Shown here: one piece after another, positions 12,109 through 35,018 of the stretch
Position numbering within the stretch: position 1 is the stretch's first letter
Layout of the letters: the number at the start of each line of letters is the position of its first letter
Source: a virus
UHGV virus genome: UHGV-0106421
Direction: 5' to 3' (one strand)
Length of the DNA stretch: 42,057 bases
The notes under the pieces: generated by a model
The model's input: only the letters and a program-made list of their open reading frames with translations
What the model was told of the DNA's origin: nothing
The model's database searches: none
Translations under genes and position numbers: made by a program

Positions 12109-12111
12109 GCG

Positions 12112-12552: not shown

Positions 12553-12562
12553 TTATCGCTCC

Positions 12563-13723: not shown

Positions 13724-13726
13724 AGT

Positions 13727-14290: not shown

Positions 14291-14654
14291 CAAACGGCAG
14301 TAATTCACAATGAGCCTGGACGAAGCCAGCACCGTAAGCCGTATACGGGTCGACGAATGTCACGCGATAATCACGGTTCTGATACGTCACGATATCGGCA
14401 TCACGGCCAGTCTGCCCCTGCGTCAGCCGCTCAGTTGTCACGATGAGAATCGCGCCGCTGATAACCTGCCCGGCCTGCATGCGGCGGTTTTCCAGGGAGC
14501 GGTCAACAGTAACAACCCCGGCAAACTGCGTTTTAACTTCGCTGTCGCTGCCGATCCCGTCATCGTCCACCGTTTGCGCGCGACGCGTTACCCACAGGTT
14601 GAAGTCGCAAAAATCGGGGTCAAAAAGCACGTCTGTTACATCAAGAGTCGGCAT
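14265..14654 (-). CDS. Virion structural protein (head-tail connector region)
   Basis: 129-aa ORF in the head-tail joining block. Confidence 0.35.
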   Translation of the reverse strand: MPTLDVTDVLFDPDFCDFNLWVTRRAQTVDDDGIGSDSEVKTQFAGVVTVDRSLENRRMQAGQVISGAILIVTTERLTQGQTGRDADIVTYQNRDYRVTFVDPYTAYGAGFVQAHCELLPFDGGTPIEQ

Positions 14655-15195
14655 CTTTATCCCTCACAATATGGGTAATAGCTCTGCGATATTGCCCGGT
14701 GTCGATTAGCGGTTTCACCAGATCGGTTCCAGGAGACTCACCAGCAGCGCGCCGCGCAAGTTCCTCTTTTGCCCCTTTGCGCCCACGGCGTGCGCGTGCT
14801 TCAACGGTGCTATCAGCAAGCGGTGTAAAGCCGGTAATGGTCATGTAACGCCTGACGCCATTCGCGGCCAGCGTTCCGGCGCGGTTAAGCGCTCTTTCCG
14901 CACCCGCCGCATTTCCATCAAGCGCAGCCTGCGCCGCTGCTTTGAGCTGCGGCACCGTCTGTTCCTCTACGGATTTAACGCCGGGGATCAGGTGCGGGCG
15001 TGGGGGTATGTTTTGCGCTGGTGAGCCGTATTCGTTGACGTAACCGATCCCGGCATTACCAAACGGAACATCCTCACGCTCGCTGTCTTCTTCCGGGATG
15101 CCCACCAGCACATCCTTTTTGGTTAGCGACCGGAGCGCATCCAGAATGGCCTGAGCGTTATCAACCCTCGTTGTTACACCACTTTTGAAACTCAT
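14641..15195 (-). CDS. Virion structural protein (head completion/adaptor-like)
   Basis: 184-aa ORF in the head-tail joining block. Confidence 0.35.
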
Positions 15196-15599
15196 AGCTG
15201 GCGACCGCCCGCACCGAACATCGTGATCAGCTGATAAAATTCAGCGCCATATCGGGTGTTATTCCAGAAGCCTGCGTCAGGGTTTAGCGTCGCGCTGGTG
15301 TCATAGCTGACGCTTACCTTGTCAACGGACTTGGAGGACTGAACACCATTGGTTGAGCCACCCGGGCCGCCGACGAGCATTGCCCGGCTATCTGCCGCCC
15401 AGAGCGTCATGTAGTGAGCCACGAACAACTCGACAAAGTACGGAAACAACTCTTTGCCGGTGACGTTTTCGCTCAGCAGCACATCAGCCAGATTCAGACG
15501 AAACTGGATTTGTGCTTCGGGATATTTGGCAGGGTCAGCAAACTGTGGAAAGTCGCGCCGAAAATCACTTACTGTTGGCAGGCTTTGATTCTTTGGCAT
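15192..15599 (-). CDS. Virion structural protein (unassigned)
   Basis: Start placed at the internal Met ([10 protein letters not shown]) to limit overlap with the upstream gene. Confidence 0.35.
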
Positions 15600-15954
15600 C
15601 TTTCGCCCCATTACCGCCAGTCTGGGCGGCAGCAATCTGCGCTTGCAGGCTGTCGTTCTGCTCTTGCAGCTTAAGCAGCGCTTCTCGCAGATCGGCAATC
15701 AACTGATCTTTATCGATAATCTGCTTATCTTTGTCGGCAATCTGAGCTTGCAGGCTGTCGATAATGGGTTGCAGATCATCGGTGTCGCTAATCACGCTTT
15801 CGGAAAGCTCGGAGTGCGCCTGGGTGAACCAGTGCGACGCGACCTCTTCCGGTACGTTATGCCGTCCCCGGCCAAACTCCCTTTTTGACTGATCGCCGAG
15901 CGTCAGCGTAAACGGGGTGTGAACATGGATGGTAACCAGCTTTTCTTTCGCCAT
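15565..15954 (-). CDS. Coiled-coil phage protein downstream of the major capsid gene
   Basis: 129-aa ORF containing a duplicated SLQAQIA heptad segment. Confidence 0.4.
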
Positions 15955-15995
15955 TTTCAGTTCCCTTCTGGCCCTTTTCGGGGCCGTTCTGGTTA

Positions 15996-16937
15996 TCAGA
16001 TACCGTCCACGTAGGACAGGGTTTCTTTGTACACTGGCTCAACCGCACCGAGCTTGCCGTAGTAGGTCGCAATCTGATACAGACCGCGATACTGGACAGG
16101 AACGCTCTGCAACGGCACCAGCGGATAGCGCACGTATTTCTTGTCGTTGGTGTAGGCGATCATACGGTCTTTACCGCCAACCCCACGCCCTTTCAGCCAT
16201 TTGACCGCTTTGATTTCAAGCGGAACGCCGTTCTGGTGGAAAGCGATAGTGTTCACAGCCAGATAGGTCAGCAGTGACTGGTTACCCGCTTCGGAAACCT
16301 TACGGCTCGCCAGCAGTGAATACTGCTCTGGCGGAATGCGCAGATCAGAAGGCACGATGGAATAACCGGATGCTGCCCAGGCATTAGACAGAATGCTGTT
16401 CACGCTATCGAGGATCTCGTCGTTGGTTGAGTTCGCCCAGGTCTTCGGCGCGTTGTTCAGCGTCACACCGACGAGGTTTGCCAGACCTTTCAGGCCGAGT
16501 GCGTCATCACCGATGTAAACCTGCTCGTCGTTGTCCATCTGCCATTTGAGCTGCATCCCGTCGTACTTCTGGGTATCAATCGGGCGGCCTACCTGCTGAG
16601 CAGCTGCCAGCTCTACAACGGTCCAGCCCAGTTCCATACCCCAGAGGTTCAGTGGATTGCCGTCTTTGCTGATATCCACGTTCACGCCAGCAATAGCGGT
16701 GGAGTCTTTGCCTACCCAGTTTTTACCATTCGGATTTGCACCAGTACCCGCAGCGGCGAAGCTGGTATTCGTCCAGCTGGAAATGTCATCTGCGATAGAC
16801 ACGTCTTCACGCAGTTGAATATCTCGGGTCCAGGTGTACCCCACCAGAGGCAGGTTCAGCGTCTGGTCGAGTCGCTCCAGCTCCCCGATGAGAAAGGCAC
16901 CGGAGCTATCTACGGTTGCCTGATCAAAAGTAATCAT
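15996..16937 (-). CDS. Major capsid protein
   Basis: 313-aa ORF following the protease/scaffold and decoration-like genes; Mu-like head gene order. Confidence 0.55.
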   Translation of the reverse strand: MITFDQATVDSSGAFLIGELERLDQTLNLPLVGYTWTRDIQLREDVSIADDISSWTNTSFAAAGTGANPNGKNWVGKDSTAIAGVNVDISKDGNPLNLWGMELGWTVVELAAAQQVGRPIDTQKYDGMQLKWQMDNDEQVYIGDDALGLKGLANLVGVTLNNAPKTWANSTNDEILDSVNSILSNAWAASGYSIVPSDLRIPPEQYSLLASRKVSEAGNQSLLTYLAVNTIAFHQNGVPLEIKAVKWLKGRGVGGKDRMIAYTNDKKYVRYPLVPLQSVPVQYRGLYQIATYYGKLGAVEPVYKETLSYVDGI

Positions 16938-16948
16938 TTGTCTGTTCC

Positions 16949-17452
16949 TTAAATCTTCCAGGAGATTTCTGCATTACCGTTAGCGTCACCGGCACCAGTA
17001 AATTCAGCATTCGCGAGTACGACAGTTTTCCCTTCCACGCTTGAAGAGCAGAAACCACCCAGCGGCACTTTAATAGATTCATCAGTGGAGACAACAACGT
17101 ATACCGGGTCACCTTTTTTGATGGTGCTGGCATCAAAGTCAGAACCAAGGTTAACGGTCATGTAACCGCGCTTCATTGCATCGCCCGGGAAGTTCTTATC
17201 CGTCCCCACCTGGCGAACCATGTCCGGCTGTGATGTGGTCGGATACGGACGAACGTAGATCCCCTTCACTTTGTCGGAGGTGTCACCGTCCGCCAGCGGC
17301 ACAAAAAAGCCGTCAGCGTCGTATTTGCCAGCCAGACCATAGGCAGCGAAGGCGTTAGCGGATTTAAGGATCACCGGCTCGACGGTTAAATCCTGCGGGC
17401 GAGAGATAGCCCCGGCAATGCCAACAGGCATCCGGTACAAATATGCAGTCAT
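16949..17452 (-). CDS. Head structural protein (possible decoration protein)
   Basis: 167-aa ORF immediately upstream of the major capsid gene. Confidence 0.4.
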   Translation of the reverse strand: MTAYLYRMPVGIAGAISRPQDLTVEPVILKSANAFAAYGLAGKYDADGFFVPLADGDTSDKVKGIYVRPYPTTSQPDMVRQVGTDKNFPGDAMKRGYMTVNLGSDFDASTIKKGDPVYVVVSTDESIKVPLGGFCSSSVEGKTVVLANAEFTGAGDANGNAEISWKI

Positions 17453-17456
17453 TGGA

Positions 17457-18689
17457 TTATCCTTTGCGGTTAGACCAGAAGTCGGCGTTTTGTTTGTTCA
17501 GGGAAGCGATGCTGGTCATGCCCATATTTGGACGTTGTGCATCGCCCGTGGTGCTGCGGGTGTTTCGCCCTTTGGCAATCTCAGACACGGCGTTAAACGC
17601 CATATCGACCGATTGCTTGGGCAATTTGCGGATATCTGCATCACCGACAACCTGGCGAACCAGTGTTTTGTCAGCGGCGGACAGCACATCACGTTTGAAC
17701 GCGGTCGGTTTCACCTTACGGCTCAGATCGATACCCGGAACGATAACTTCGGCACGATAAGCAGCGTCACCGGTAATCGTGGTTTCCTCTTCGTCGTCCT
17801 CACCGTCGCCGGTAGGGTCTTTGTTATCTTTGCCGTCAGGCTTATCGTCGTTATCGCCCGTTGCAGTACCTTCCAGCTTAGCCAGCAGGGCTTTGAGCAA
17901 GGTTTTGATATCGTCCTCGCCGTCGCCGGTTGGCTCTCCGCCCATTTCCGGCTTTTTGTCCGGCAATGGTTGTTGCGGTGAAAGATTAATGTTGAGGTTA
18001 ACGCCGCTCGGCAGATCCCCTTCATCGCCCGTTACCGCCGCTGGCGCAGAGTCCAGCAGTTCGTTCATGGTGTCAGCATCACCCGTTTTGATGGCCGTGC
18101 GCATGCGGGTCCACCAGCTTTTCTTTTGATTTGCCATTGTGTCTCTGTCTCCAATTGCACAACGATTTCCGGCTCTGCCTTTAGGGACAAGAGCCACATG
18201 GTTTCCGGTAATATCGACCTGCTCGGCTTTTCCGGGTTCGGTCTGCTCGTACTCAGCGTCATAGCCGCACGACACTTCGCGCAGACCATCTTCGATCAGC
18301 TGAATGGCGCTTTCGTCTTTGACGATAAGGTCAGCCAGCATCAAATCAGACTGATCACCAGTCCCGCGCCGAACGTTCTGAAGATGCCCGACCGCAAGCT
18401 CTTTCCAGTTCTCGGGATTGACCAGCCGCACATTCCCGTTTTCATCTTCAGGATGCAGGATCGTGATGCTCATCCCTTCGAATGAGGCGAGCGTGGCCGG
18501 ATGGAATACCTGATCAGGAGAGCGCGTTACGACTATCTCGCCGAGCTTGTCGGGTTTGAGGTTTGGCAGATCGGCAGCGCCGTAAAGCTGCTTACCCGTT
18601 CGACCTATCGGCACGTCTTTGCACAGCAGCGAGCCGTCAGCCAGCTGATAGCGGGTTTCCCCCAGCCGGGTATTGAAAAAATATTTCAT
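17457..18689 (-). CDS. Prohead protease / scaffolding-like protein with acidic low-complexity C-terminal region
   Basis: 410-aa ORF; D/E/G-rich repeats (GDGEDD, DNDDKPDGKDNKD); position between the Mu F-like and capsid genes. Confidence 0.45.
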   Translation of the reverse strand: MKYFFNTRLGETRYQLADGSLLCKDVPIGRTGKQLYGAADLPNLKPDKLGEIVVTRSPDQVFHPATLASFEGMSITILHPEDENGNVRLVNPENWKELAVGHLQNVRRGTGDQSDLMLADLIVKDESAIQLIEDGLREVSCGYDAEYEQTEPGKAEQVDITGNHVALVPKGRAGNRCAIGDRDTMANQKKSWWTRMRTAIKTGDADTMNELLDSAPAAVTGDEGDLPSGVNLNINLSPQQPLPDKKPEMGGEPTGDGEDDIKTLLKALLAKLEGTATGDNDDKPDGKDNKDPTGDGEDDEEETTITGDAAYRAEVIVPGIDLSRKVKPTAFKRDVLSAADKTLVRQVVGDADIRKLPKQSVDMAFNAVSEIAKGRNTRSTTGDAQRPNMGMTSIASLNKQNADFWSNRKG

Positions 18690-18703
18690 GGTTTACCTGC
18701 GAT

Positions 18704-19477
18704 TCAGGCGAGATAAGAATGAGGGTTGGGGAAGACGATTTCTTTGTAACAGCGGCAGTTCGGGAGCTCGCCAGCGTGACCGGTCATGCCGTCAAGCGTT
18801 GGAGGTCGGCCCCATTCGACAAACTTCCCTTCCATCTCTCGATGAGAATGCCGGACGTCGCCATCTTCGGCTGTACGCCAGATATAACCATTCGAGCCGA
18901 TTGACAGCGCACGCGCCTGATCCAGTGCACCGGTTGCGCGCCCAAGCTCAGTCCGGGCGATAAGGTTCGCTCGTGAGCGTGACACGTCACCGGAAGCAGC
19001 TATCTCTTTCGCGAATGGCTCAGCGCGGCCACCAGTTACTACAGCCTCGATGGCCTTGTTCTGAATGTCATACACCCGATCGGCGGCCTCAAGAGGCAGA
19101 GATTTGATGTACTTAATTTGCTCGGCGACGATGGATTTCATCACCTGGCCTACCGGGGCGCGGTCGACCATGTTGCGTAGTTCTGCGCTGATGTTCCGAC
19201 TGTGCTGACGCCACTGCTTTTCATTCTGGTGCGCAATGTCGGCGGTGAAGCTCTCAGCAACCTTAGTCGCCCAGGGGGTGATGATTTCGCTGTAGCGCTC
19301 CAGCGCATTCATTATTTCGGTGACGCTATCGTTTGAACCATCGTAGCGACCATTTACGATATCCCCGACCGCCCGCGCTATCTGCCGTAGGCTCGTTCGA
19401 TATCGGATCTCCGCCTGGCGGCTCTGGCGGTTTGTCGCCAAGTTCGCCGATGCCTGGCGGCGCTTCGTCTTCGGCAT
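18704..19477 (-). CDS. Head morphogenesis protein (Mu gpF / SPP1 gp7 family)
   Basis: 257-aa ORF with the F-like C-terminus GRPPTLDGMTGHAGELPNCRCY; the annotated start overlaps the portal by about 150 nt, so the real start may be the internal Met near 19312. Confidence 0.6.
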   Translation of the reverse strand: MPKTKRRQASANLATNRQSRQAEIRYRTSLRQIARAVGDIVNGRYDGSNDSVTEIMNALERYSEIITPWATKVAESFTADIAHQNEKQWRQHSRNISAELRNMVDRAPVGQVMKSIVAEQIKYIKSLPLEAADRVYDIQNKAIEAVVTGGRAEPFAKEIAASGDVSRSRANLIARTELGRATGALDQARALSIGSNGYIWRTAEDGDVRHSHREMEGKFVEWGRPPTLDGMTGHAGELPNCRCYKEIVFPNPHSYLA

Positions 19478-20795
19478 TCTCGATATCCTCGTCGGTAATG
19501 GATGCCCCGATGCCGGTGACGTCAGAGTTTTCGCGCAGGTCGGTCATCGCCGCCTTACGCGTCATCAATCCGTCGCCCAGCGCGGTACTGATCGCGTTGG
19601 TGGTGTTTACGGCCACCGTTGATCGGTCAACGTCTGACATTTGCCATAGCGGGTTAAACTCAAACGTGAAATCGTCCGGCAGCGGCTTTCCGAGTTCCGA
19701 GCGGTGCATAATGTCCAGTATCCGGCGCATCGGCAGCCGTAAGCGGCGCTCCTGCAATGAGCTCACCCGGTCGTAATAGTTGGCGAGGTCTGCATCACCA
19801 GTAGAGAAGCCTTTCGGGGATTGACCGAACAGGCGTATCAGCGGGATACCAACGGCACCGCTGATCTGCTCAGCAAACTGCGAAAGAATGTCATCCAGAC
19901 CACTAAAGCTGTACTGGTGGGTTTCGAACTTATCCCGCGAGTCCATGAGCGTCATGCCTTCATTGCTCTGGAACTGGCGGATCAGGTCGATGTTCTTCAG
20001 CAACGCTTCGAACGCTGGGCCACCAAGCGCGATAATCTCGCGCAGCTTCTCCACGCTGTAGGTGCGCAGATGCGCTTTGTAGACCAGCTGAGCCGCGCCG
20101 ACAGTGGCGCTGTCGAACGCAGTAAGCCGATCCCAGATTCGCTCTACAACCGACATTCCCCATTCGTTTTCGGTCATCTTCTGCTGGAATGGCAGCGTGA
20201 CGCCATCGAAGCGAATCAGGCGGCTGTGATGGATGCGCCAGGCAGGAATTCCCGTTGCTGTGGTCACCACATCGTAAAACTCAGGTTTGCCGAGATCCGG
20301 CCCCATATCTTTAATGCGGCGGGTCAGCACCGGGTTAATCATCCAGCGGTCGAGTGGGAGAACGCCCTTAAACTTGCCTTCTCCAATGGTTTCGAGCCTC
20401 AGCGGGGTCATTGGTGCCTGCCCCTCAATCATGATGAAACCCACCGCGCCGCCGTAGAGACGCGACCATTTCAGCACGTCGTTCAGCGCATCCCAGATTT
20501 GCAACTCATCCAGTTGTGATTCGAGAATGCCGCGATCTTTTGCATCAATTTCCGAAGTGATGCGAATGCCTTTGCGGGTCATATCATCCGGGATAGCATC
20601 GACCGCTTCTCCGATGATCCAGGACGAACGATAGGACCATTCCACCAGCATGCGGTTGCGGCTGGTGAAGTTAGCCCGGTAGGTCGATGCTGAGTGCTGG
20701 TTAGGCGTCTGCATTCCCACGCGGGCGACAAAGTTCTCATAGCCATCAGCGGTGGCCTGTGCCGTTCGCCGCGTGGCTTGCTTGTTTCGTGCCAT
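19326..20795 (-). CDS. Portal protein
   Basis: 489-aa ORF directly after the large terminase and before the F-like gene. Confidence 0.6.
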   Translation of the reverse strand: MARNKQATRRTAQATADGYENFVARVGMQTPNQHSASTYRANFTSRNRMLVEWSYRSSWIIGEAVDAIPDDMTRKGIRITSEIDAKDRGILESQLDELQIWDALNDVLKWSRLYGGAVGFIMIEGQAPMTPLRLETIGEGKFKGVLPLDRWMINPVLTRRIKDMGPDLGKPEFYDVVTTATGIPAWRIHHSRLIRFDGVTLPFQQKMTENEWGMSVVERIWDRLTAFDSATVGAAQLVYKAHLRTYSVEKLREIIALGGPAFEALLKNIDLIRQFQSNEGMTLMDSRDKFETHQYSFSGLDDILSQFAEQISGAVGIPLIRLFGQSPKGFSTGDADLANYYDRVSSLQERRLRLPMRRILDIMHRSELGKPLPDDFTFEFNPLWQMSDVDRSTVAVNTTNAISTALGDGLMTRKAAMTDLRENSDVTGIGASITDEDIENAEDEAPPGIGELGDKPPEPPGGDPISNEPTADSAGGRGYRKWSLRWFKR

Positions 20796-22417
20796 CAGGC
20801 CTGTCTCCCTAGCAGCTCCCAGATGTTCAGGGCTGAATTCATTGGCGCGTAGCTGATCATCACCGAGTCGGCAAGGTTTGGCGACCGGGTTCCATCAGGC
20901 TGTTTATCAATAACGATTTTTCCCACACCATTAATGGAATAGGTCGGCTGCGAAAGCTCGATGATGAGTTTATCTTTGAGTGCCATGCTACTGCTGATTG
21001 AGATGATTTCGTCCGGGGTGTAAGCCATACCTTCAACCACGGCGCGCCAGGTATTCTGAAAAAGTTTACGTAACCGCCACCAGCTCTGGGCCTTGGCGTT
21101 GGCGAAGAAGTCCTTGTTCAGGCGTGCGGCCTGTCCGTTGTCCCCGCGCACCGCTTCGTCGTCCGGATCAAACACCGCGCCGCTACCGCGAAACGGTGTA
21201 GCGAGTATTGACGGTCGACGCGCAGCGTTACGCTGTTCGTTGATAGCGCGTGCATCGCCGCGAACGCCAGCACCCAGCCCGTCCTCATCAAAGCGAAACT
21301 CTTCGAGGTTGTCATGTTCGCAAAAACCGAAGACCTTCTCGACGGACTGATAAATGTCGCTGCCCACACCAGACCATTCCCGCACATTTTCCAGGAGGAA
21401 GCCATGACGGGTGGAAAAGGCATTTTTGTCCCTGCCTTCGTCGGCGACATCCATCGCGCCAAGTCGTTTGCCTGTTGGCTGGATCCCCAGTTTGATATGT
21501 GCATCAACGGCAGCCTGTACCCATTCGGATGGAATCAGGACGCCTTCCGCTGATGCGCTGTAGTTCAGATCAAGTTCCTGTGCCACCACCACCGGATTAT
21601 CGATTTTCTCGCATTCCCTGCGATACCACTCTTCATCCTTGCGAGGATCATCCCGCCAGTGGAATGTGAATACCGGTATCTTCCCGCCGTGACGCTTCTG
21701 CGCGAACGGGTTCGCCATGCCGTTAACCGAACTCAGGTCGATACGGCAACGCGTCGTTTGTGACAACGCCGCATCAATCAGCAGAGGACGCTGAAGGAAT
21801 GCAGCCTCATCAACCAGATAAAGCGTGGTACGGTCACCACGACCAATATTATCGCCAGCCTCGCCTTTGATAACGGCACCAGTTTCAGGAAACTCAACAC
21901 GCATATATGGCGCGTGCTTCTTCTCGCTCCACGAACCGCGAAACTCTACAGGTAGTGTCTCCACGAACTTGCGCGCCTTCCAGAACAATGCTTTCGGGTC
22001 ACCGGTGCTGTCGACGTATTCCTCTTTACGGGAGCCGAAACCGATAACCATTTCTTTGTTGAAGAGACAAAGCGAGCAGGCCAGTCCGATCGCGGTCCAA
22101 CTGAGCCCCATTTCACGGGATTTTTCGGTAATACCATTCTCCCGATTACTCCAGCGTTCCATAATCCAGTGGATCCACTCCTCCTGCTTAGGGAAGAGTA
22201 AAAACGGAATGGTCACCGGCAGGCCATAATCAATATTACGCGGGTCCGTTGTCATGCCCCAGTCGATGATGAACTGAGCCGGATTGGTTCGGTAAAACTG
22301 TTTTAGTGCTGGCAATATTTCAGGGTTCTGGCGAATGCGCTGTAAGCGTTCCATCCGCCATTCAAAAACCATCTGGTAATCAGGATGTTTAAAATCGAAG
22401 GGAAATGGTAACGGCAT
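20795..22417 (-). CDS. Terminase large subunit
   Basis: 540-aa ORF after the small terminase; ATPase/nuclease-sized, with a Walker-like region. Confidence 0.8.
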
Positions 22418-22419
22418 AC

Positions 22420-22971
22420 TTAGCCCATCATTTTTTTATACGCTTCTGCAGCCTGCTCCGGCGTTAAGTTGGTAATTTCTGTTCTGACTGGTCCTCCGTC
22501 AGCACCAGTCACTTCATTTTTGACATTGTCTTTAAACGCCTGAACAGAAACATGACGCCCGAGCAACTCAAGGTTTTTAACCTTATCAGGCCATTTGATT
22601 TTCTTCAGAAGTGCGGCGCTATCTGCGGATACCATCTCCACGACATCCATTCCTGATAGCGTTGTGCGCCATACCTTAGGCCAGTCTTTGATGGGTTTTA
22701 GCTCACCGTTTTGCAGGAGAATGTCAAGCACATCCATCTGGTCGATTTCAATAAGGCGATTAAGTACATATTCTGCATTAATACCAACAAGATCATTGCG
22801 TTGCGCTTTCAGTTCGGCGATTCTTAACTTGATGTCAGGTTTTGACAGGTTTTCGGATGCGGTACGGTTAGCTGTCTTTGCGCTGTACCCCGCCCGAATA
22901 GCCGCTTGCGTGGCGTTTAAATCGATGAGGTACTCGCGACAGAACATTTCTTGCTTGTCGGTGAGTGCCAT
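22420..22971 (-). CDS. Terminase small subunit
   Basis: 183-aa ORF starting [30 protein letters not shown], the conserved N-terminus of P27-type small terminases. Confidence 0.7.
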
Positions 22972-22994
22972 TTTTTGTTGCCGTAAGAGTTTAT

Positions 22995-23531
22995 ATGACT
23001 ATCTATTACACAGTAGACCGTGCTGGTCATCATGGCATGCCAAACCCGCTTTCCACTGGCTTAGTGATTACAGCATCGGAGAGCTTCAACCATTTGCCTC
23101 CCAATATTGCTACGCATCTGGCAGCGTTGCTACCAGGTAATTACTCTCGTCATGGAAAGCAATATTTGATTGATGACACTGCAATGACTGCTCACGCAGG
23201 ATATCCAATGGAGATAATACTTGAGTTGATTAGACAAAGAGATTATTCAACCAAACCATCAAGGTTAAAATCTGCATTTGGCTGCTTATCCCTATCAGAT
23301 GCAGATTCCTTTAGAAAGCTAGACAACAGGTTTGTTAACGCCCCCATTTTTGAGATTTCGCCATCAACTCAACAAGCTCATGTTGCAGATATGCACCTGT
23401 TGAATATCGCTTGCCCAGCCCATGAATATCTCAACAGATGCCATCTTTATTGGCAGGGACTGCCCGGGCAAAACCCTTTTTGGGAAGCAGTTATTCCATT
23501 ACCAGCAACAATAGGAAATCAAGTGGCTTGA
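22995..23531 (+). CDS. Opposite-strand moron of unknown function at the lambda bor position
   Basis: 178-aa ORF from ATG 22995 with AAGAG 5 nt upstream; no signal peptide; AT-rich by eye; antisense to the late operon between Rz and terS. Confidence 0.45.
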   Translation: MTIYYTVDRAGHHGMPNPLSTGLVITASESFNHLPPNIATHLAALLPGNYSRHGKQYLIDDTAMTAHAGYPMEIILELIRQRDYSTKPSRLKSAFGCLSLSDADSFRKLDNRFVNAPIFEISPSTQQAHVADMHLLNIACPAHEYLNRCHLYWQGLPGQNPFWEAVIPLPATIGNQVA

Positions 23532-23928
23532 TATAGAGTAGGCTCGTTAAGTTGATCCAATGACCTTTCAGCCCAATTTACTTATTCGTTACTCTGTTGC
23601 TTGGCCTGCCTTGCTTATTTTTACATACCCGGAATCACGGGTATGTAGAATTTTCGATGGTTCACCTGAATAAACCTCATCCAGAGCTCTAACGTATTCG
23701 AGAGTTTCAGCGTTGGATAACCAGTGATCCAGACGCTTACCGAACCGTTTGCAATATCAGTGTCATTTGAAGCGGATAGCTTCACCTTTGTAATTCAGTG
23801 GAACGATATTCATAACGTTTACCTACTCTTTGAAATGAACCTTTGCCGCACAGGAAACCAGCTCACCGAGGCTCGCCAGCACTAACTGGTATCCTCAAAG
23901 GCCCATTCCAAAGGGGCAGGTTCGGTGT

Positions 23929-23983
23929 AAAAAACATGCGTTGCGGTACGCATTTATTGCAAAAAGCCCCGCATCGCGAGGCT
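23929..23983 (-). terminator. Tandem rho-independent terminator hairpins downstream of Rz/Rz1
   Basis: agcctcgcgatgcggggct followed by TTTTT, then atgcgt-accgca-acgcat followed by gTTTTTT (minus-strand reading). Confidence 0.5.
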
Positions 23984-24014
23984 CATTAAATTGACTTTGT
24001 GATTTGCAAAAAAA

Positions 24015-24476
24015 TTATTTCAGGCATTGCGTCCTGATGTACTCTTGCAGGTAGTTAACCTGCGCGGTTATCCTGTCGATTCCACTTCGGAGACGGTAAT
24101 AATTGAGTTCAGCATCTGCTGTAAGTCTTGGGCTTTCTCCATCGCCCATGCTGCTGGCTCCGGTCGTTGACTTTGCACAGGTGGCGGCGACTTGCAGGCG
24201 CTTACGACCAGCAGAAACATCAGCACGGAGACTTTCGATAGTCGCGTTAGCATCAGCAAGCTCCTTTGTATATCTGGCATCGAGTTCTGCTACGTCACGT
24301 TGACGCTTCTGCATATCAGAGATCGTCGCCATAGCCGAATCTAATGCCATAGCGTTTTCGTCGCGCTGTTTTTTGTATTCAATGGCTTTATTGTGGTAAT
24401 GATTAGCTGACCAGACGAGAGAACCGAATAAAGTCAGGAGGAAAGCAGAAATAACCAGCTTATAGCGAAGTTTCAT
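24015..24476 (-). CDS. Rz: Rz i-spanin (lambda Rz-like)
   Basis: From the internal Met ([14 protein letters not shown]) gives 153 aa with N-terminal TM helix and coiled-coil periplasmic domain; close to lambda Rz as recalled. Confidence 0.75.
   Translation of the reverse strand: MKLRYKLVISAFLLTLFGSLVWSANHYHNKAIEYKKQRDENAMALDSAMATISDMQKRQRDVAELDARYTKELADANATIESLRADVSAGRKRLQVAATCAKSTTGASSMGDGESPRLTADAELNYYRLRSGIDRITAQVNYLQEYIRTQCLK
24068..24253 (-). CDS. Rz1: Rz1 o-spanin lipoprotein, embedded out of frame inside Rz
   Basis: +1-frame ORF inside Rz; lipobox VVSAC; Pro-rich segment (KSPPPVQSQRPEPAAW), as in lambda Rz1. Confidence 0.6.
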   Translation of the reverse strand: MLTRLSKVSVLMFLLVVSACKSPPPVQSQRPEPAAWAMEKAQDLQQMLNSIITVSEVESTG

Positions 24477-24936
24477 TAACCACCCCGCCAGCTTCTTTGA
24501 ATTTGGCAATCAGACTATCGATCTTGTGTTCATACTGACCGTAGCCAGCACCGGGCAATGAAGCCCAAATATTGCTGCAACGATCAATAGCCTGACGAAT
24601 ATCACCCCGATCAATCATCGGTAAAGCGCCACGCTCCTTAATCTGCTGCAATGCAACAGCATCCTGGCTTTTAGGAGAGAAGTCTTTCAGGCCAAGCTGC
24701 TTACGGTAGGCATCCCACCAACGGGAAAGAAGCTGATAGCGACCGGCTGCTGTTGATTTGAGTTTTGGGTTTAGCGTGACAAGTTTGCGAGGGTGATCTG
24801 AGTAATCAGTGAATAGCTCTCCGCCAACAATGACGTCATAACCATGATTTCTGGTTTTCTGACGTCCGTTATCAGTTCCCTCTGACCATGCCAGCATATC
24901 GAGGAACGCCTTACGTTGATTATTGATTTCCACCAT
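24460..24936 (-). CDS. R: Endolysin, lytic transglycosylase (lambda R-like)
   Basis: 158-aa ORF starting [45 protein letters not shown], near-identical to lambda R as recalled. Confidence 0.9.
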
Positions 24937-25243
24937 CTTCTACTCCGGCTTTTTTAGCAGCGAAGCGTTTGATAAGCGAACCAATCGAGTCAGTACCGAT
25001 GTAGCCGATAAACACGCTCGTTATATAAGCGAGATTGCTACTTAGTCCGGCGAAGCCGAGAAGGTCACGAATGAACCAGGCGATAATGGCGCACATCGTT
25101 GCGTCGATTACTGTTTTTGTAAACGCACCGCCATTATATCTGCCGCGAAGGTACGCCATTGCAAACGCAAGGATTGCCCCGATGCCTTGTTCCTTTGCCG
25201 CGAGAATGGCGGCTAACAGGTCATGTTTTTCTGGCATCTTCAT
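24920..25243 (-). CDS. S: Class I holin with dual-start motif (lambda S-like)
   Basis: 107-aa ORF starting [34 protein letters not shown]; Met1-Lys2-Met3 dual start (ATG 25243 and ATG 25237); near-identical to lambda S as recalled. Confidence 0.9.
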
Positions 25244-29257: not shown

Positions 29258-29329
29258 ACCTCCCTCTCCCCCAAATAAAAAGGCCTGCGATTACCAGCAG
29301 GCCTGTTATTAGCTCAGTGATGTAGATGG

Positions 29330-30706
29330 TCATACGTCAGCCCCTTGTGCATATCGTCTGCCACGTGCAGCGGGTGCATTTGATGTTGTGCAAATCTGTC
29401 TGGCTTCATCCTGGTCACATGCAACAAAGTGTCCGTTGCAGAACCGCTGGTAAACCGTACCAAGCGAGCCAAAACGGTTTTTCGTCACGATGATTTCAGC
29501 AAATGGCGCGGCGCTACTGTTCTCGTCATATACCGCTTCCCGATAGAGCATGATGATTGAGTCTGCGTCCTGCTCAATGCTTCCTGAATCACGCAAATCT
29601 GCGTTTGTCGGGCGTTTGTTTGGTCGCTTCTCAACATCGCGCGAAAGCTGACTTAGGGAGATAACTGGCGTTTTCAGGTCTTTCGCCATCGCCTTCAGGC
29701 TTCCTGAGATGTGAGCAATTGCGAGGTCGTTGCGGTCTGCTTTCGGCTTCTCAATCAGGCCAAGATAATCCGCCATGATGAGTGACAGGTTTGGATTTTC
29801 CTGTTTGTGCCGTTCTGCGATTGAGCGTATTTCTTCGACCGATAACCGCGATGCATCGACTACCCATACATCCAAATCCGCAAGCTGATTCATGCCGTTA
29901 GCAACGCGCGCCCAGCCTTCGTCATCCATCGATGCAGGATTTCGTAGCACGCTAACCGACATCCTCCCGGCGTTGGCAATGCTTCGCTCTGCAATCTGCA
30001 ATGCGCTCATTTCCATCGAGAAAATCAACACTCCGCGCCGGACGTCAGAACCAGGAATAACACGACTTGCAACGCCTTCGGCAATCTTCAGCGCCAGTTC
30101 GGTTTTCCCCATACCAGGACGAGCAGCGATTATCACCAGGTCTTCCGCGTTCATCCCTCCGGTGATGGCATCAAGTTCTTCGATTCCGGTCTTCAGGGTA
30201 TCGGACTCTTCTCCGTTCCTCAGACGCCTGTCAAGCGTGTCAGTGTAGTCGGTGATGATTTCCCCTAACCGTACCGGTTTAACCTCGTCACGGGGCTTTC
30301 TGATGGCTGAAAGACGCTTTACAAGTTCATCCATCGCCTGACTCGATGTATCGATGGTTCCGCTCTGAATTGGTTCACGCATTTCATCCATGATTTCCAG
30401 CACCAGACGGCGGTGATAGTTATCCGCGACCATTCCGGCATATCCCTTCAGGTTTGCGGCACTCGGGCAGTTTTTGCTGGTCATCAGGATTGACGTGAAA
30501 TGCTCCTCTCCGCACGCCTCGGCAACCATCAGCGCGTCGATTAGGTTTCTGTTTCTCGCCTGCTTGCGGATAACCTCAAAGGCTTTCCGGTAGAGCGGAA
30601 TTGAAAACGCTTCCGGCTCCAGCGTTGCCAGAACGTCGCTGGCAGTTGGCGTTAATCCACCAATCAGCAGGCCACCGATAACGCTCGCTTCGATATCCTG
30701 TCTCAT
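29330..30706 (-). CDS. Replicative DNA helicase (DnaB-like)
   Basis: 458-aa ORF with Walker A ([12 protein letters not shown]) and DnaB-family C-terminal motifs. Confidence 0.85.
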
Positions 30707-31650
30707 GCAATCCCCCTGTCTGCAAACTTCCCTTCCCGTACCCCCGTTAACGAGTCTTCCCTCAGCAGGTAATCAAAATCAGCTGTCCAGCCCGTGTCGT
30801 TGTCTCCGAAGTAAAACGGCTTGGCCTGATGCACAAACGCCCTGACATACGCTCTGAAACCGTCCACGTTTGGCGTTTTCAGTTGCGGGATGATTTTCTT
30901 CAGGCGGCGTTTGCGTTTCTCGTTGACCGCAACAGCGTGTGGAAGTCTGTCACCGACTTCGGTGTTGTAGGCGTTCAGGAAGGATTCGTAGTCGATTCGT
31001 TCTGCCTTGCGACGTTCAGGTTTAACCTGCCCATCGCCTCCCCCATTGGGGGGTAGGGGGGTATTATTTATATTCTTGTTAATACCTTCTTGTTCATGAT
31101 GTGCGGTTGTTTGTGCGGCTTCATGTGCGGCTTCATGTGCGGCATGTACGCTGAAAGCCGCGCCATTACTGGCTTCATCATGTGCGGCATCATGTGCGGT
31201 TGTTTGTGCGGCTTCATGTGCGGGTGAATTGTCCATTTTTTGAGCGTATTCATGGTAATTTGTGATGGTGATCACACGACCTTTTTGCTTCTCTCCATCA
31301 ATGGTGATCATCCCCTCTTTCACAAAAACCTGAAGCATCCGCTCAACCTGATCACGGCTTGCCGGCTTGCCATGCCTGTCGCATAACTGAAGACCTAAAT
31401 CAGCTGCTGTCACAACCAGTTGACCGGGTTGCAGATGCCATTCATGACCTTTGAAATTCGCTTTGTATGGCTTTCTGGCGGCATTCAGGAGAAGGTTTTC
31501 CCACAGGGTGCGAAGATAAACATCTTTCGCCCATGACTGTTTCAGAATGCTCCGGTACAACGGAATGTAACCAGTTTTCTGGTTCTCCATCCTGTTGCTC
31601 CTGCGCTCGTGTGCGGCGCTGAAATCGTAGATTTTTGCTGTATTGCTCAT
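30703..31650 (-). CDS. Replication initiator (lambda O-like N-terminus) containing the origin iterons
   Basis: 315-aa ORF starting [13 protein letters not shown] (compare lambda O MTNTAKILNF, recalled); internal His/Ala/Glu-rich repeat encoded by the iteron DNA. Confidence 0.7.
31062..31226. repeat. Candidate replication origin: TGTGCGG-type iterons plus adjacent AT-rich tract inside the O-like gene
   Basis: About nine copies of (t)catgtgcgg / ttgtgcggc in two clusters (31097..31150 and 31168..31226), next to tattatttatattcttgttaata (31062..31085). Confidence 0.6.
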
Positions 31651-31652
31651 AA

Positions 31653-31925
31653 CTACCTGCCTTGACGAAAGACCTTAAGAACATCGTTAAACTGACTTAC
31701 GGATATGTCTTCTTTGAGAAGCTTTTCCAGAAATGCGTTTGGAATGAACGTATATCCCTCCTCTTTTGGTAGAGACGGGAGCAACGCCCTCGCCTCAGCC
31801 TTCAGAAGCTCAGTTCTGGCAACTTTCACAAAAGAGATTTGAGTTCTTTCATCAATGGAACGAAGGAAGCGCAAACGCTTAGCTTCTTTGTGTGTATCAG
31901 GTGGATTAAAGCCTTTGTTTCGCAT
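31653..31925 (-). CDS. Hypothetical protein between cII and the O-like gene
   Basis: 90-aa ORF from the internal Met (MRNKGFNPPD) with GAGG RBS at 7-nt spacing; the longer track ORF overlaps cII. Confidence 0.4.
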   Translation of the reverse strand: MRNKGFNPPDTHKEAKRLRFLRSIDERTQISFVKVARTELLKAEARALLPSLPKEEGYTFIPNAFLEKLLKEDISVSQFNDVLKVFRQGR

Positions 31926-31947
31926 ATAATTACCTCGTTGGATGTTG

Positions 31948-32241
31948 TTAAAATTCCATCTGGATTTGATCAGAACGCTCGGTTGCCGCCGGGCGTTTTT
32001 TATTGGTGAGAATCGAAGCAACTTGTCGTGCCAATCGAGCCATATCGTCGTCGACGACGCCCCATTCAAGAACAGCAAGCAGCATTGAGAACTTTGGAAT
32101 CCAGTCCCTCTTCCACCTGCTGATCTGCGACTTATCAACTCCAACAGCTTCCGCTGTCTTCTCAGTTCCAAGCATTGCGATTTTGTTAAGCAACGCACTC
32201 TCGATTCTTAGAGCCTCGTTGCGTTTGTTTGCACGAACCAT
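31948..32241 (-). CDS. cII: Transcriptional activator CII
   Basis: From the Met at 32241: MVRANKRNEALRIESALLNKIAMLGTEKTAEAVGVDKSQISRWKRDWIPKFSMLLAVLEWGVVDDDMARLARQV..., essentially lambda CII as recalled (97 aa). Confidence 0.85.
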   Translation of the reverse strand: MVRANKRNEALRIESALLNKIAMLGTEKTAEAVGVDKSQISRWKRDWIPKFSMLLAVLEWGVVDDDMARLARQVASILTNKKRPAATERSDQIQMEF

Positions 32242-32300
32242 ATGTAAGTATTTCCTTAACAAATAAGAAGTTATGCGCATCAACTTATGCGCGTTGTATT

Positions 32301-32342
32301 CCCGCATTTCGGCGGGAATGAGGACCATGACTGTTAAAGAGC
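32301..32342 (-). promoter_or_regulatory. nutR-like site (boxA plus boxB hairpin) between cro and cII
   Basis: Minus-strand boxA gctctttaac (32342..32333) and boxB hairpin cccgc-cgaaat-gcggg (32316..32301); identical elements recur on the plus strand upstream of N. Confidence 0.55.
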
Positions 32343-32349
32343 AATTTGC

Positions 32350-32565
32350 TTATGCGGCGTTCTTACGCGGCGGGAACAAGCCATCTAGCGTTGTCTTGCT
32401 CCCCAATTTATTCAGCGCCTTTACCAGGCGACGGCACGACTCTAAATCTGGAGTCCGGATACCTGACTCGTAGTTAGCTAAGCGGGACTGGTTCCAGCCA
32501 CACGCGCCTGCTAACGCAGATTGAGTGATGCCAAGCTTTTTCCGTTCGTTGGCAATGTTGTTCAT
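32350..32565 (-). CDS. cro: Cro-like HTH repressor
   Basis: 71-aa HTH ORF divergent from cI; AAGGA RBS; recognition-helix region (GWNQSRLANYESG) resembles that of the adjacent cI (GWASQSRIGNYESG). Confidence 0.6.
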   Translation of the reverse strand: MNNIANERKKLGITQSALAGACGWNQSRLANYESGIRTPDLESCRRLVKALNKLGSKTTLDGLFPPRKNAA

Positions 32566-32589
32566 AGGTTTCCTTAAGAGCTAGTTCAC

Positions 32590-32660
32590 TCAGTCTTTAT
32601 TAAACACATATTGTGATTGATAGTCAACACAAATCGTGTAAAGCCTTAAACCACGGAATG
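32590..32660. promoter_or_regulatory. OR-like operator/promoter region between cro and cI
   Basis: Near-palindromic sites built on ACAC/GTGT (aacacatattgtgatt 32603..32618; aacacaaatcgtgt 32626..32639) and a TTGACT -35-like hexamer on the minus strand. Confidence 0.45.
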
Positions 32661-32669
32661 TGATATAAA

Positions 32670-33311
32670 ATGCGCATGAACAGAACAGAAACTATCGCCG
32701 CGCGTATCAAGCGATTACGGGAAGATAAAGGGCTTTCACAGAAGGCTCTGGCGGAGCTTTGCGGCTGGGCTTCACAATCTCGGATCGGCAACTATGAATC
32801 AGGAACCAGAAGCGTTAGTGTTGATGACGCAGAGGTAATAGCTAAAGCTTTGGGCGTCGCTCCGGCAGAACTGCTTTTTGGCGACAACTATCAGGGACAA
32901 TACAAGCCAGGGGAAAAGTTTCCGTTGATTAGCTGGGTTAGCGCAGGTGCATGGAGTGAGGCCGTAGAGCCGTACAACCCTCAGGCAGTGGATGAGTGGT
33001 ATGAATCAGATTGTCACGTTGTCGGTGACGCCTTCTGGCTCAGGGTTCAGGGCGACTCAATGACAGCTCCTACCGGCCTTAGCGTTCCTGAGGGTATGCT
33101 GGTTCTGTTCGACACTGGAAAGGAAGCCGTTAATGGAAGCCTGGTAGTTGCGAAGCTGACAGATGCTAATGAAGCCACGTTCAAGAAGCTAATCATTGAT
33201 GGCGGTAACAAATACCTGAAAGGGCTTAACCCTGCCTATCCGTTGATCCCAATCGACGGCAACTGCAAGATAATCGGCGTAGCAGTGCAGATGATGATGA
33301 AATTCTCCTGA
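32670..33311 (+). CDS. cI: CI-type repressor (HTH_XRE plus S24 LexA-like peptidase domain)
   Basis: 213-aa ORF with N-terminal HTH, Ala-Gly self-cleavage site (VSAGAW), catalytic Ser (GDSM) and Lys (VVAKL); almost no leader before the ATG. Confidence 0.8.
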   Translation: MRMNRTETIAARIKRLREDKGLSQKALAELCGWASQSRIGNYESGTRSVSVDDAEVIAKALGVAPAELLFGDNYQGQYKPGEKFPLISWVSAGAWSEAVEPYNPQAVDEWYESDCHVVGDAFWLRVQGDSMTAPTGLSVPEGMLVLFDTGKEAVNGSLVVAKLTDANEATFKKLIIDGGNKYLKGLNPAYPLIPIDGNCKIIGVAVQMMMKFS

Positions 33312-33335
33312 TATACCCGCCACTTAAAAACATCA

Positions 33336-33358
33336 AACCCGCTTCGGCGGGTTTTTTG
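33336..33358 (+). terminator. Rho-independent terminator immediately after cI
   Basis: cccgc-ttcg-gcggg hairpin followed by TTTTTT; no rexAB-like genes between cI and OL. Confidence 0.6.
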
Positions 33359-33396
33359 TTGCCCAAAGAAAATTAAATTACCTTAAAAATCAATGA

Positions 33397-33461
33397 AAAC
33401 ACGTGTTGTGATAAAAACAATCACATTTCGTGTTGACAGCACGAACACAATTTGTGATTAT
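33397..33461 (+). promoter_or_regulatory. OL/PL-like operator-promoter region
   Basis: TTGACA (33433..33438), 17-nt spacer, GATTAT (33456..33461); overlapping inverted repeats TGTGAT-N7-ATCACA (33407..33425) and aacacaatttgtgatt (33444..33459). Confidence 0.5.
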
Positions 33462-33507
33462 CTAGCCATCAGCAGGAAGCTGGTAGCCAAACGGAACAGA
33501 TTGGCAG

Positions 33508-33547
33508 GCTCTTTAACATTGATGGGATTGTCCCGCCGAAATGCGGG
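33508..33547 (+). promoter_or_regulatory. nutL-like site (boxA plus boxB hairpin) upstream of N
   Basis: boxA gctctttaac (33508..33517) and boxB hairpin cccgc-cgaaat-gcggg (33532..33547), identical to the elements between cro and cII. Confidence 0.55.
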
Positions 33548-33655
33548 AACCAAAGAGTAGTTGGCTTTGGGGTGACGTGAAGTGCAGCTGCACGACAGCA
33601 ACCGGAAGATAAGCACCCGGCGCGTCACCGCCAAAGTCAATCATCGGAGGTCAAC

Positions 33656-33928
33656 ATGACAGTAGTCATTACATATCTGGCTGACGATAACGCCAGAAAT
33701 CGCCGCAGAGCACGCAGACAGGCTCAACGTGAACAGGCAATGCAAGAACAGCGACTGGCGCGAAAAATTGCGCTAAAGCTCTCTGGTTGCGTCAGAGCAG
33801 ACAAAGCAGCATCACTCGGAAGCCTTCGCTGCAAGAAGGCAGATGAATGCAGTGGAAGTATTTGCCTGCCAAACGTAGCCATTTACGCGGCAGGATACCG
33901 GAAATCAAAACAACTGACAGCGAGGTAA
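33656..33928 (+). CDS. N-like transcription antiterminator (arginine-rich motif)
   Basis: 90-aa ORF with ARM NARNRRRARRQAQREQAMQEQ; GGAGG RBS; first gene of the PL operon, downstream of nutL. Confidence 0.55.
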   Translation: MTVVITYLADDNARNRRRARRQAQREQAMQEQRLARKIALKLSGCVRADKAASLGSLRCKKADECSGSICLPNVAIYAAGYRKSKQLTAR

Positions 33929-33931
33929 GTG

Positions 33932-34156
33932 ATGAATCAGACATACATTCCATCATGCTTGAGAAATCTGCCAAAGCAGAAAGCAAAGCCCCGCAAGCAA
34001 GCCATAAAGGACGCTAAGGCAGAGGTTATTGATCAAGCAATACAATTGCTCAGGGAGGAGTTAAGAAGTGGCAAGCTCGAAGGAATGATGATGCCTTATC
34101 AGCGCGGATATCTATCGGCTATTAGTAAGTTGGAAGTATTGAAGAGTGAATTATGA
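33932..34156 (+). CDS. Hypothetical small basic protein downstream of N
   Basis: 74-aa ORF from ATG 33932 with GAGG at 6-nt spacing; AT-rich by eye. Confidence 0.4.
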   Translation: MNQTYIPSCLRNLPKQKAKPRKQAIKDAKAEVIDQAIQLLREELRSGKLEGMMMPYQRGYLSAISKLEVLKSEL

Positions 34157-34218
34157 ACTATCTGGAATTTCCGGATGGTTCATTGTTTTGGCAGCAAACC
34201 ACTTATTTGAGGTGAGAT

Positions 34219-34689
34219 ATGACAATATCATGGAGCGTACCTTTTCCTGAATCAGAAACTGAACATGATGGAATGCCTGTTTTCTGGAGATTCCAGGCGA
34301 CAGTTGAAGAAGATGGAATCAAAATATTCGCACTTCAATATATAGCTTTTCATCAGACAGAGCATTATGCATGGTTGGTTCCTGCGCATTGGATTGTTAA
34401 TTTTAAACCAGCACCAAATCAGTGGTTACAGGAATGGAAACAAAAGAGAAATAGATATGCAATTAAGAAAGTAGCAAAAAATGCAGAAAGATCTTTTGCA
34501 TTCCCAACGAAGAAACTTGCCATTGAAAGTTTATTGCGCCGGAAGAAATACCATTTAATGAGAATCAAACAAGATTTGGCTGTTGTATCAACTCTTGTTG
34601 ATGGGATGAAGAATATTGATACATCAACACCAGATATTGAATATAACTTTGGACACAACCAAGAAACAGAAAACTGGGTGTTTTATTAG
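34219..34689 (+). CDS. Hypothetical protein, AT-rich moron at the ral/sieB position
   Basis: 156-aa ORF with GAGGTGAG RBS; markedly AT-rich by eye; followed by hairpins and a terminator before cIII. Confidence 0.5.
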   Translation: MTISWSVPFPESETEHDGMPVFWRFQATVEEDGIKIFALQYIAFHQTEHYAWLVPAHWIVNFKPAPNQWLQEWKQKRNRYAIKKVAKNAERSFAFPTKKLAIESLLRRKKYHLMRIKQDLAVVSTLVDGMKNIDTSTPDIEYNFGHNQETENWVFY

Positions 34690-34793
34690 TACGAATAAGC
34701 ACTGTGTATTCATTCCAACGAGTGAATACACGGAGCAATGTCGCTCGTAACTAAACAGGAGCCGACTTGTTCTGATTATTGGAAATCTTCTTT

Positions 34794-34818
34794 GCCCTCC
34801 AGTGTGAGGGCTTTTTTA
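34794..34818 (+). terminator. Rho-independent terminator between the AT-rich insert and cIII
   Basis: gccctc-cagtgt-gagggc hairpin followed by TTTTTT. Confidence 0.5.
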
Positions 34819-34883
34819 TATGCATACCAATAACGCTTCACTTGAGGCGTTTTCGTTATGCAATCAAATATAAGGAGTTACCC

Positions 34884-35018
34884 ATGATGCACTTTCAGCT
34901 CGCTGGTAGCGGCGTCATGTCCGCTTTCTACCCGCACGAATCTGAATTATCACGCCGAGTTAAACAATTAATCAGAGCAGCAAAGAAACAACTGGAGGCG
35001 TTATGCGCAATGAAATAG
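34884..35018 (+). CDS. cIII: CIII-like protease (FtsH) inhibitor
   Basis: 44-aa ORF MMHFQLAGSGVMSAFYPHESELSRRVKQLIRAAKKQLEALCAMK with AAGGAG RBS; resembles the central helix of lambda CIII as recalled. Confidence 0.55.
   Translation: MMHFQLAGSGVMSAFYPHESELSRRVKQLIRAAKKQLEALCAMK

Follow-up and report, generated by a model that had tools for sequence, protein, structure and literature searches.

The viral genome UHGV-0106421, a stretch of 42,057 nucleotides (nt) referred to as a whole as the window, carries a boxA sequence followed by a short hairpin on either side of its lambdoid immunity region. By sequence identity at both sites, these elements are HK620-class nut sites, and very probably, judging from the sequence, they serve as nutL and nutR in antitermination of the early genes of a lambdoid phage. 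The sites are not new. They were annotated in HK620 in 2001, and the module is common in E. coli prophages and is an ordinary, well-understood feature.

A preliminary description of this genome had placed a repeat of boxA and the hairpin CCCGC-CGAAAT-GCGGG at 32301..32342 (-) and 33508..33547 (+). We scanned the window with the pattern GCTCTTTAAC-N(5-30)-CCCGCCGAAATGCGGG and recovered exactly two copies, with 14-16 nt between the two parts, at these positions. None of 100 dinucleotide-preserving shuffles matched the boxA-plus-hairpin pattern, so none would be expected by chance, and a third copy of the 16-nt hairpin core was not found in the window, even at 3 mismatches. The blocks shared by nutR and nutL in transcript sense, GCTCTTTAACA for boxA and TCCCGCCGAAATGCGGGAA for boxB, are slightly longer than first noted. 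The spacers between them (16 nt in nutR and 14 nt in nutL, counted from GCTCTTTAAC to CCCGC) differ in sequence and have only a few bases in common (A-T-ATGG). The rrn-type boxA consensus is UGCUCUUUAACAA, and GCUCUUUAACA, which lies 5' of the hairpin on the transcript at both sites, is of this type and not lambda's variant CGCUCUUA.

Unstable hairpins had been named in the preliminary description as the result that would count against it, and RNA folding of both sites gave stable ones instead: 8 pairs at -12.5 kcal/mol (z = -4.1) for nutR, and 6 pairs at -10.5 kcal/mol (z = -2.8) for nutL. The minimal 18-mer boxB, at -9.7 kcal/mol, is at least as stable as the boxB of lambda (-7.9) or phi21 (-7.3). 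In lambdoid nut systems, boxB is a short stable hairpin with a loop of 5-7 nt and no U-tract, and the hairpins found here have 6-8 pairs and a 6-nt loop. A permissive Rfam search of 31000..35000 gave matches at chance level only (E > 0.3) and none to a nut or boxB family, so Rfam evidently has no model for these sites.

The arrangement of the two sites was also as first described, with gene calls and Pfam agreeing that the minus-strand copy lies between cro and cII and the plus-strand copy upstream of an N-like gene, whose start is 108 nt further on. The layout is therefore that of two divergent early operons, with nutL between pL and N and nutR between cro and cII. Promoters and six operator repeats lie upstream (Table 1), so each candidate nut site is, in transcript sense, downstream of a repressor-controlled promoter. 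Homology with the lambda leader start AUCAGCAGGACGC suggests that the pL transcript begins near 33468. Terminator-like sites downstream of the nut sites, of the intrinsic type only, are present in both operons, one on the minus strand after the helicase gene and two on the plus strand after N.

In HK620 (GenBank AF335538), the features annotated as "putative" nutL and nutR (7753-7794 and 9423-9468) have boxA, spacer, and boxB base-for-base as in the window at both sites, and their positions relative to pL, N, cro, and cII are the same. The N leader is 98% identical, and N differs at 3 of 90 residues, with the first 32 residues identical. HK620 differs in having its own cI, cro, and operators, with 1696 base pairs (bp) between the boxB copies compared to 1231 bp in the window, whereas the window has an immunity cassette of the mEp213/Bas106 type and late genes of the myovirus type. 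The module was also observed in HK630, HK140, CUS-3, N7, JEP4, and ECP1, and the N gene with its leader is ~98% identical to those of HK620, HK630, HK140, CUS-3, N7, JEP4, and others. ECP1 is the closest phage over the region (98.8% over 98% of 32200..34000), and HK630 and related records mark boxA elements. A segment comprising nutL, leader, and motif matches 511 of 5426 complete E. coli genomes (~9%), with coverage of at least 80% in 413 of these.

The gene downstream of nutL belongs to the N family of lambdoid antitermination systems by its Pfam N_peptide and PHROG 271 matches and by an arginine-rich motif at approximately residues 10-31, DDNARNRRRARRQAQREQAMQE (nt 33683..33748), with NARNRRRARRQAQREQ at residues 12-27. 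The family matches and a comparison of motifs support the earlier statement that this is a non-lambda N protein with a motif of its own. It is 97.8-100% identical to the N of HK140, HK630, and JEP4. A PDB sequence search with the N protein returned only spurious RNF168 matches, the solved N peptides being too short and divergent. After the nutL boxB, the leader holds a second hairpin and a boxC-like element (Table 1); neither a boxC-like element nor a similar hairpin was evident after nutR in the leader comparison. A further leader helix, GUGACGUG with CGCGUCAC (33572..33579 with 33621..33628 (+)), is kept in phi21-type leaders with one compensatory and two one-sided changes, weak evidence given that only two lineages were compared. 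It may correspond to the processed stem of the lambda N leader. The open reading frame (ORF) after N (33929..34156) belongs to PHROG 5305, where its function is unassigned, and there is no Nun-like gene in the window. In mEp235 (locus L128, 3701..4039), the gene that directly follows a phi21-type N gene is annotated as a Nun-like termination factor.

To measure conservation, we used scan patterns that fixed only the flanks and left boxB free. The 18-nt boxB was unchanged in 120/120 nutR and 120/121 nutL flank-anchored copies (240/241 in all), the exception being locus L178, described below. By comparison, 6 of 7 positions in the nutR spacer stretch adjoining boxB were polymorphic, versus 0 of 18 in boxB (Fisher p = 4e-5, which overstates independence because the sequences are related). 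Rarer nutR partners (L014 and L050) and other variants keep the loop CGAAAU and its closing C-G pair and vary in the stem. Across seven distinct variants, 89% of the cells pair, versus 29-59% in slid controls; three pairs are changed on both sides, and the loop is invariant. At locus L096 (~6560..6600 (-)), the nutR boxB is interrupted after UUCCCGCC by an inserted element ending in TGAACCGCCCCGGGTTTCCTGGAGAGTGT, which we take to be an IS3-family end. The N gene of the same locus is truncated, so L096 looks like a decayed prophage and not a counter-example.

An exact boxB scan of viral contigs returned at least 120 loci. Among the 120 matches listed, to which the counts in this paragraph apply, 90 loci have one nutL-type and one nutR-type copy in divergent orientation. 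The spacing of the pair takes 20 different values in ~11 length classes (1152-2990 bp), so one and the same nut pair flanks a wide range of immunity cassettes. An ORF with the motif R[NS][RS]RRARR (DDNARNRRRARRQAQREQ N-terminus) follows 101 of the 102 nutL-type copies with enough downstream sequence. Similarly, cII follows 96 of 102 nutR-type copies, and four of the other six do not have enough downstream sequence. Single-copy loci were examined as possible counter-examples, and most end near the site; others include L014 and L050, with their variant stems around an unchanged loop, and the disrupted L096. One outlier (L036), a boxB string lacking boxA, N, or cII context, was set aside as unrelated or due to chance.

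The N gene and its surroundings are mosaic. The N-terminus that bears the motif, MTVVITYLADDNARNRRRARRQAQREQAMQ, is found joined to at least four distinct middle/C-terminal N segments. In HK629 and VT1-Sakai, N has ~98% DNA identity to the window's N over codons 33-90 but only 45% over codons 1-32, which encode the phi21 motif GTAKSRYKARRAELIAERRS. The nutL and nutR of these phages carry the phi21 boxB (CUCAAC-CUAACC-GUUGAG and CACCU-CUAACC-GGGUG), and the leader from transcript start through boxA is 96% identical in HK629 and phi21 and 89% in VT1-Sakai. mEp213 and Bas106 have the cro-cI-OL/pL cassette of the window but the lambda N motif, with GCCCUGAAGAAGGGC at nutL and GCCCUGAAAAAGGGC at nutR, and the Bas106 match (99.3% over 32349..33480) ends just inside both nut sites.

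Locus L178 (5706..5757 (+) and ~4388..4431 (-)) has nutL flanks as in the window with another N motif, SDNSKNRYRARRAAKREQ, and the loop CUAGCA at both sites. Its stems differ between the two sites by a compensatory C-G to A-U change, and no annotation of its N/boxB class was seen. At a Pantoea septica locus (L146; 3601.. (+) and 530.. (-)), the motif GKDNAKSRRNARRAEE occurs with GGUGC-CGAGAAC-GCACC at nutL and GCCAC-CGAGAAC-GUGGC at nutR; the two hairpins have the same 7-nt loop, and their stems differ throughout yet compensate. Enterobacterales prophages show great diversity in both N motif and boxB loop.

In every one of these sequence comparisons, the motif, the left boxB, and the right boxB switch as a set among the HK620, phi21, lambda, and L178 classes, either on shared backbones or around a shared cassette. 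Such set-wise switching is what a cognate peptide-RNA pair predicts. By this natural co-variation, the co-switching together with the 101 of 102 nutL-type copies among the matches listed, the boxB loop appears consistent with a non-lambda N motif, as had been proposed from the first.

The comparison with the boxB of phi21, P22, and HK-type phages, called for in the preliminary description, found a match with HK620 and differences from phi21 and P22. Phage phi21 (peptide-RNA complex PDB 1NYB; also HK629, VT1-Sakai, and mEp235) shares with the window an N backbone that begins at residue 33 (protein identity to phi21 N, 96% over residues 37-64), homologous leader flanks, the boxA GCUCUUUAACA, and a boxB made of a 6-pair stem and a hexaloop with C first and AA at positions 3-4. 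It differs in its loop (CUAACC versus CGAAAU here) and its motif (GTAKSRYKARRAELIAERRS versus DDNARNRRRARRQAQREQAM here). Identity between phi21-type sequences and the window is 39% in boxB and 45% in N codons 1-32, and the nutL and nutR stems of phi21 differ from each other while those of the window are identical.

Lambda has the same order of boxA, spacer, and boxB in each early operon, with nutR placed after cro and before cII and nutL after pL and before N, and presumably the same mechanism. It also shares the RRRxRR motif core, an A-rich loop containing GAAA, and a hairpin with a boxC-like GGGGUG after nutL. The lambda boxB, however, has a 5-pair stem and a pentaloop, GAAAA or GAAGA, so the earlier observation that the window's loop (the hexaloop CGAAAU) differs from lambda's is correct. 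Lambda boxA, CGCUCUUA, departs from the rrn type, and its boxA-boxB spacer is 8-9 nt compared to 15-17 nt in the window (from the 8-nt boxA core to the boxB stem). Lambda N has 107 amino acids and no detectable similarity outside the motif; tblastn matched only via a C-terminal motif shared by some relatives. P22 gp24 (PDB 1A4T) resembles the window's N in its C-terminal motif LYAAGHRKSKQITAR (57% identity over residues 47-90), and P22 is alike in layout and in boxA type (phi21 and the P22 nutL are of the window's type). It differs in the nutL pentaloop GACAA and in the motif GNAKTRRHERRRKLAIERDT.

By analogy with these systems, early control in this phage would run as follows. With repressor absent, RNA polymerase would start at the divergent pL and pR and transcribe each nut site into RNA. 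Single-stranded boxA GCUCUUUAACA would recruit the host NusB-NusE (S10), and boxB, with its 6-pair stem and hexaloop CGAAAU, would be the target of N, whose gene lies just past nutL and whose arginine-rich N-terminus would contact the hairpin. With NusA and NusG joining in, the polymerase would become resistant to termination. It would then pass the tR1 region and the terminator that follows the replication genes in one operon, and the terminators beyond N in the other. The binding events and antitermination itself are inferred from lambda, P22, and phi21. In lambda, NusB-NusE associates with boxA RNA and the N motif with boxB, NusA makes contact with both the spacer and N, and the assembled complex with NusG makes RNA polymerase terminator-resistant (PMC3177189).

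The loop itself may combine features of two known systems. In the hexaloop CUAACC of the phi21 boxB (PDB 1NYB), UAAC makes a tetraloop-like turn, and the C on either side of it forms a non-canonical C-C pair, as described in a survey of GNRA-like motifs (PMC12550061). The window's loop fits this C-UAAC-C format in length and composition (C-GAAA-U) and could, by analogy, be a true GNRA (GAAA) tetraloop flanked by a C.U pair, that is, a phi21 frame with a lambda-like loop. Among the classes seen, motifs of the RRRxRR type occur with G-starting GNRA-like loops (lambda, HK620 class, P22, and Pantoea L146), and R-Y-[KR]-ARR motifs occur with C-UA.. loops (phi21 and L178). We consider the balance even for the proposal that the HK620-class pair (DDNARNRRRARRQAQREQ with UCCCGC-CGAAAU-GCGGGA) is orthogonal to those of lambda, P22, and phi21, that its loop is a C.U-closed GAAA tetraloop, and that a simple motif-to-loop rule may hold across classes.

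We weighed three other explanations of these data. The one that survives best, though it is improbable, accepts the sites as functional nut sites and holds that their specificity is not distinct, with HK620-class and lambda-class N cross-reacting on each other's boxB. In lambda, Trp18 has a role in loop stacking. The window's motif, A-R-N-RRR-A-RR-QAQ, does align with lambda's A-Q-T-RRR-E-RR-AEKQAQW, sharing A-x-x-RRR-x-RR and then QAQ, but it has Ala where lambda has Trp18. The loop core GAAA likewise resembles GAAAA and GAAGA, yet the loop has six bases and not five. Cocozaki et al. 2008, cited in PMC8022706, reports by its title that the boxB requirements of P22 and lambda overlap. However, in natural phages the lambda motif always accompanies the lambda boxB at its two sites, and the HK620 motif likewise accompanies CGAAAU, which holds even where the immunity cassette is shared.

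It is very unlikely that the inverted repeats act as DNA only, as protein-binding palindromes or recombination boundary sequences with no RNA function. Module-exchange breakpoints do adjoin the sites (32349 and 33480 are the ends of the Bas106 match), which makes an added role as recombination joints possible, and the CUS-3 record annotates a boundary sequence in the region. Nevertheless, the asymmetric loop CGAAAU reads the same in transcript sense at both sites and always lies 3' of boxA, the sites co-vary with the N-terminal motif of a protein from an RNA-binding family, and the stems change by compensation around a fixed loop, the pattern expected of an RNA hairpin. The idea that the hairpins are terminators, attenuators, or RNA-stability elements independent of N is scarcely credible: they are G+C-rich and lie in early-transcript leaders, but neither is followed by a U-tract (GGGAAUACAACG and GGGAACCAAAG) or called by the terminator scan, and the linked boxA and the co-variation with the N motif would be left unexplained.

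Several points weigh against identifying the two elements as the nut sites of an HK620-class antitermination system with its own peptide-RNA pair. Even the HK620 record calls nutL and nutR putative, and no published binding or antitermination study of an HK620-type N/boxB was found in the searchable literature; the boxA sequence string was not found in PMC2800207. The samples are dominated by closely related E. coli prophages, so that counts such as 101/102 (among the matches listed) and 240/241 are not independent observations. The alignment behind the stem variation comprises only seven hand-picked sequences, and the nutR variants L014 and L050 are mismatched at the third stem pair. The hairpin in the tR1 region is weak (z = -1.6) and has no U-tract, so termination there would have to depend on Rho. 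Finally, the C.U-flanked GAAA fold proposed for the loop rests on analogy.

The features of the region, a lambdoid immunity and early-control region in the orientation opposite to the lambda map, are collected in Table 1.

Table 1. Nut sites, early genes, and control elements in the window (positions 1 to 42,057)
Feature	Position	Strand	Evidence and remarks
nutR boxA GCUCUUUAAC, identity with nutL reaching GCUCUUUAACA	32333..32342	-	exact repeat; 8 nt past the cro stop codon; same sequence as the HK620-annotated nutR
nutR boxB hairpin AUUCCCGC-CGAAAU-GCGGGAAU, 8 pairs	32298..32319 (core common with nutL 32300..32317)	-	RNA fold; flank-anchored conservation; stem variants
nutL boxA GCUCUUUAAC	33508..33517	+	exact repeat; ~40 nt past the inferred pL transcript start
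nutL boxB hairpin UCCCGC-CGAAAU-GCGGGA	33531..33548	+	RNA fold; flank-anchored conservation; identity to the HK620-annotated nutL
Hairpin CCAAAG/CUUUGG and boxC-like GGGGUGACGUG after nutL boxB	33550..33579	+	N-leader comparison; homologous to lambda CAAAG..CUUUGGGGUGUGUG
N-family antiterminator gene, 90 amino acids	33656..33928	+	Pfam PF25694 N_peptide, 58 bits (cutoff 27.9); PHROG 271, 119 bits
Hairpin GCGCAU-AAGUUG-AUGCGC just downstream of nutR, tR1 region, no clean U-tract	32275..32292	-	fold -9.0 kcal/mol, z = -1.6; HK620 record puts tR1 immediately after nutR
Strong intrinsic-terminator-like site after helicase gene, tR2-like position, rightward operon	29281..29304	-	8-pair stem then UUUUUAUUU; fold -16.7 kcal/mol, z = -3.3
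Intrinsic-terminator-like site downstream of N, tL-like position, leftward operon	34794..34811	+	GCCCUC-loop-GAGGGC then UUUUUU; fold -11.1 kcal/mol, z = -2.5
Second terminator-like site downstream of N	34832..34851	+	terminator scan/sequence
DnaB-type helicase	29330..30706	-	gene calls; Pfam
O-type initiator	30703..31650	-	gene calls; Pfam
cII, first gene downstream of nutR	31948..32241	-	Pfam Phage_CII, 162 bits, full length
cro-type helix-turn-helix gene, between pR and nutR	32350..32565	-	Pfam HTH_3, 48 bits; position as HK620 cro
cI-type repressor (helix-turn-helix and S24 peptidase)	32670..33311	+	Pfam Peptidase_S24, 89 bits; HTH_3, 53 bits
Terminator after cI-type gene	33335..33354	+	terminator scan
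pL promoter TTGACA, 17 nt, TG-GATTAT	33433..33461	+	promoter scan, 10/12 matches
pR promoter TTGACT, 17 nt, TG-TTTAAT	32599..32627	-	read from sequence
OL operator repeats, three, overlapping pL	33399..33411, 33421..33433, 33445..33457		motif WCACRNNNYGTGD
OR operator repeats, three, overlapping pR	32604..32616, 32627..32639, 32651..32663		motif WCACRNNNYGTGD

The 13-nt operator motif WCACRNNNYGTGD has six sites, found only at OL and OR in the window (11 strand-matches versus 1.5 expected). The promoter scan, which demands A as the second base of the -10 hexamer, passed over pR for that reason. Three candidate gene calls over these elements were rejected. The ORF at 33393..33560 (+), which spans the operators, pL, and nutL, would start upstream of the promoter needed to transcribe it, and the ORF at 32273..32473 (+) is antisense to nutR and cro. 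Extending cII upstream to 32328 is unsupported, as the alignment to the Pfam CII model begins with the ATG at 32241. The counterpart of the first ORF in HK630 (HK630_043) is annotated as a hypothetical protein, as is the equivalent region in RefSeq E. coli genomes. Such calls over nutL are probably an annotation artefact over a regulatory RNA site.

A strong terminator-like hairpin at 31939..31999 (+) lies opposite the 3' end of cII, in antisense. HK629 has an oop-like RNA annotated at this position; the Rfam matches there were all sub-threshold and at chance level. Within the O-type replication gene, 12-nt tandem repeats TGTGCGGCTTCA and CATCATGTGCGG (31112..31223) encode a His/Ala-rich repeat and may be origin iterons. 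For the late/structural half of the window (1..25000), the closest phages are Citrobacter phage Omnitron (93.9% over 73%) and SEN34-like temperate phages of the myovirus type, so this genome combines a lambdoid early region with a virion module that is not lambda's.

As a discovery, the finding matters little, the early switch of this phage being standard lambda-type antitermination. It has practical value for annotation, given that ORFs called over nutL by automated pipelines are entered as hypothetical proteins, both in E. coli genomes and in HK630. The region also offers a natural illustration of an N-terminal motif and two boxB copies inherited as a three-part set across an exchangeable immunity cassette. 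With experimental characterization, this class would add one natural peptide-RNA pair to the lambda/P22/phi21 set used in RNA tethering and synthetic biology.

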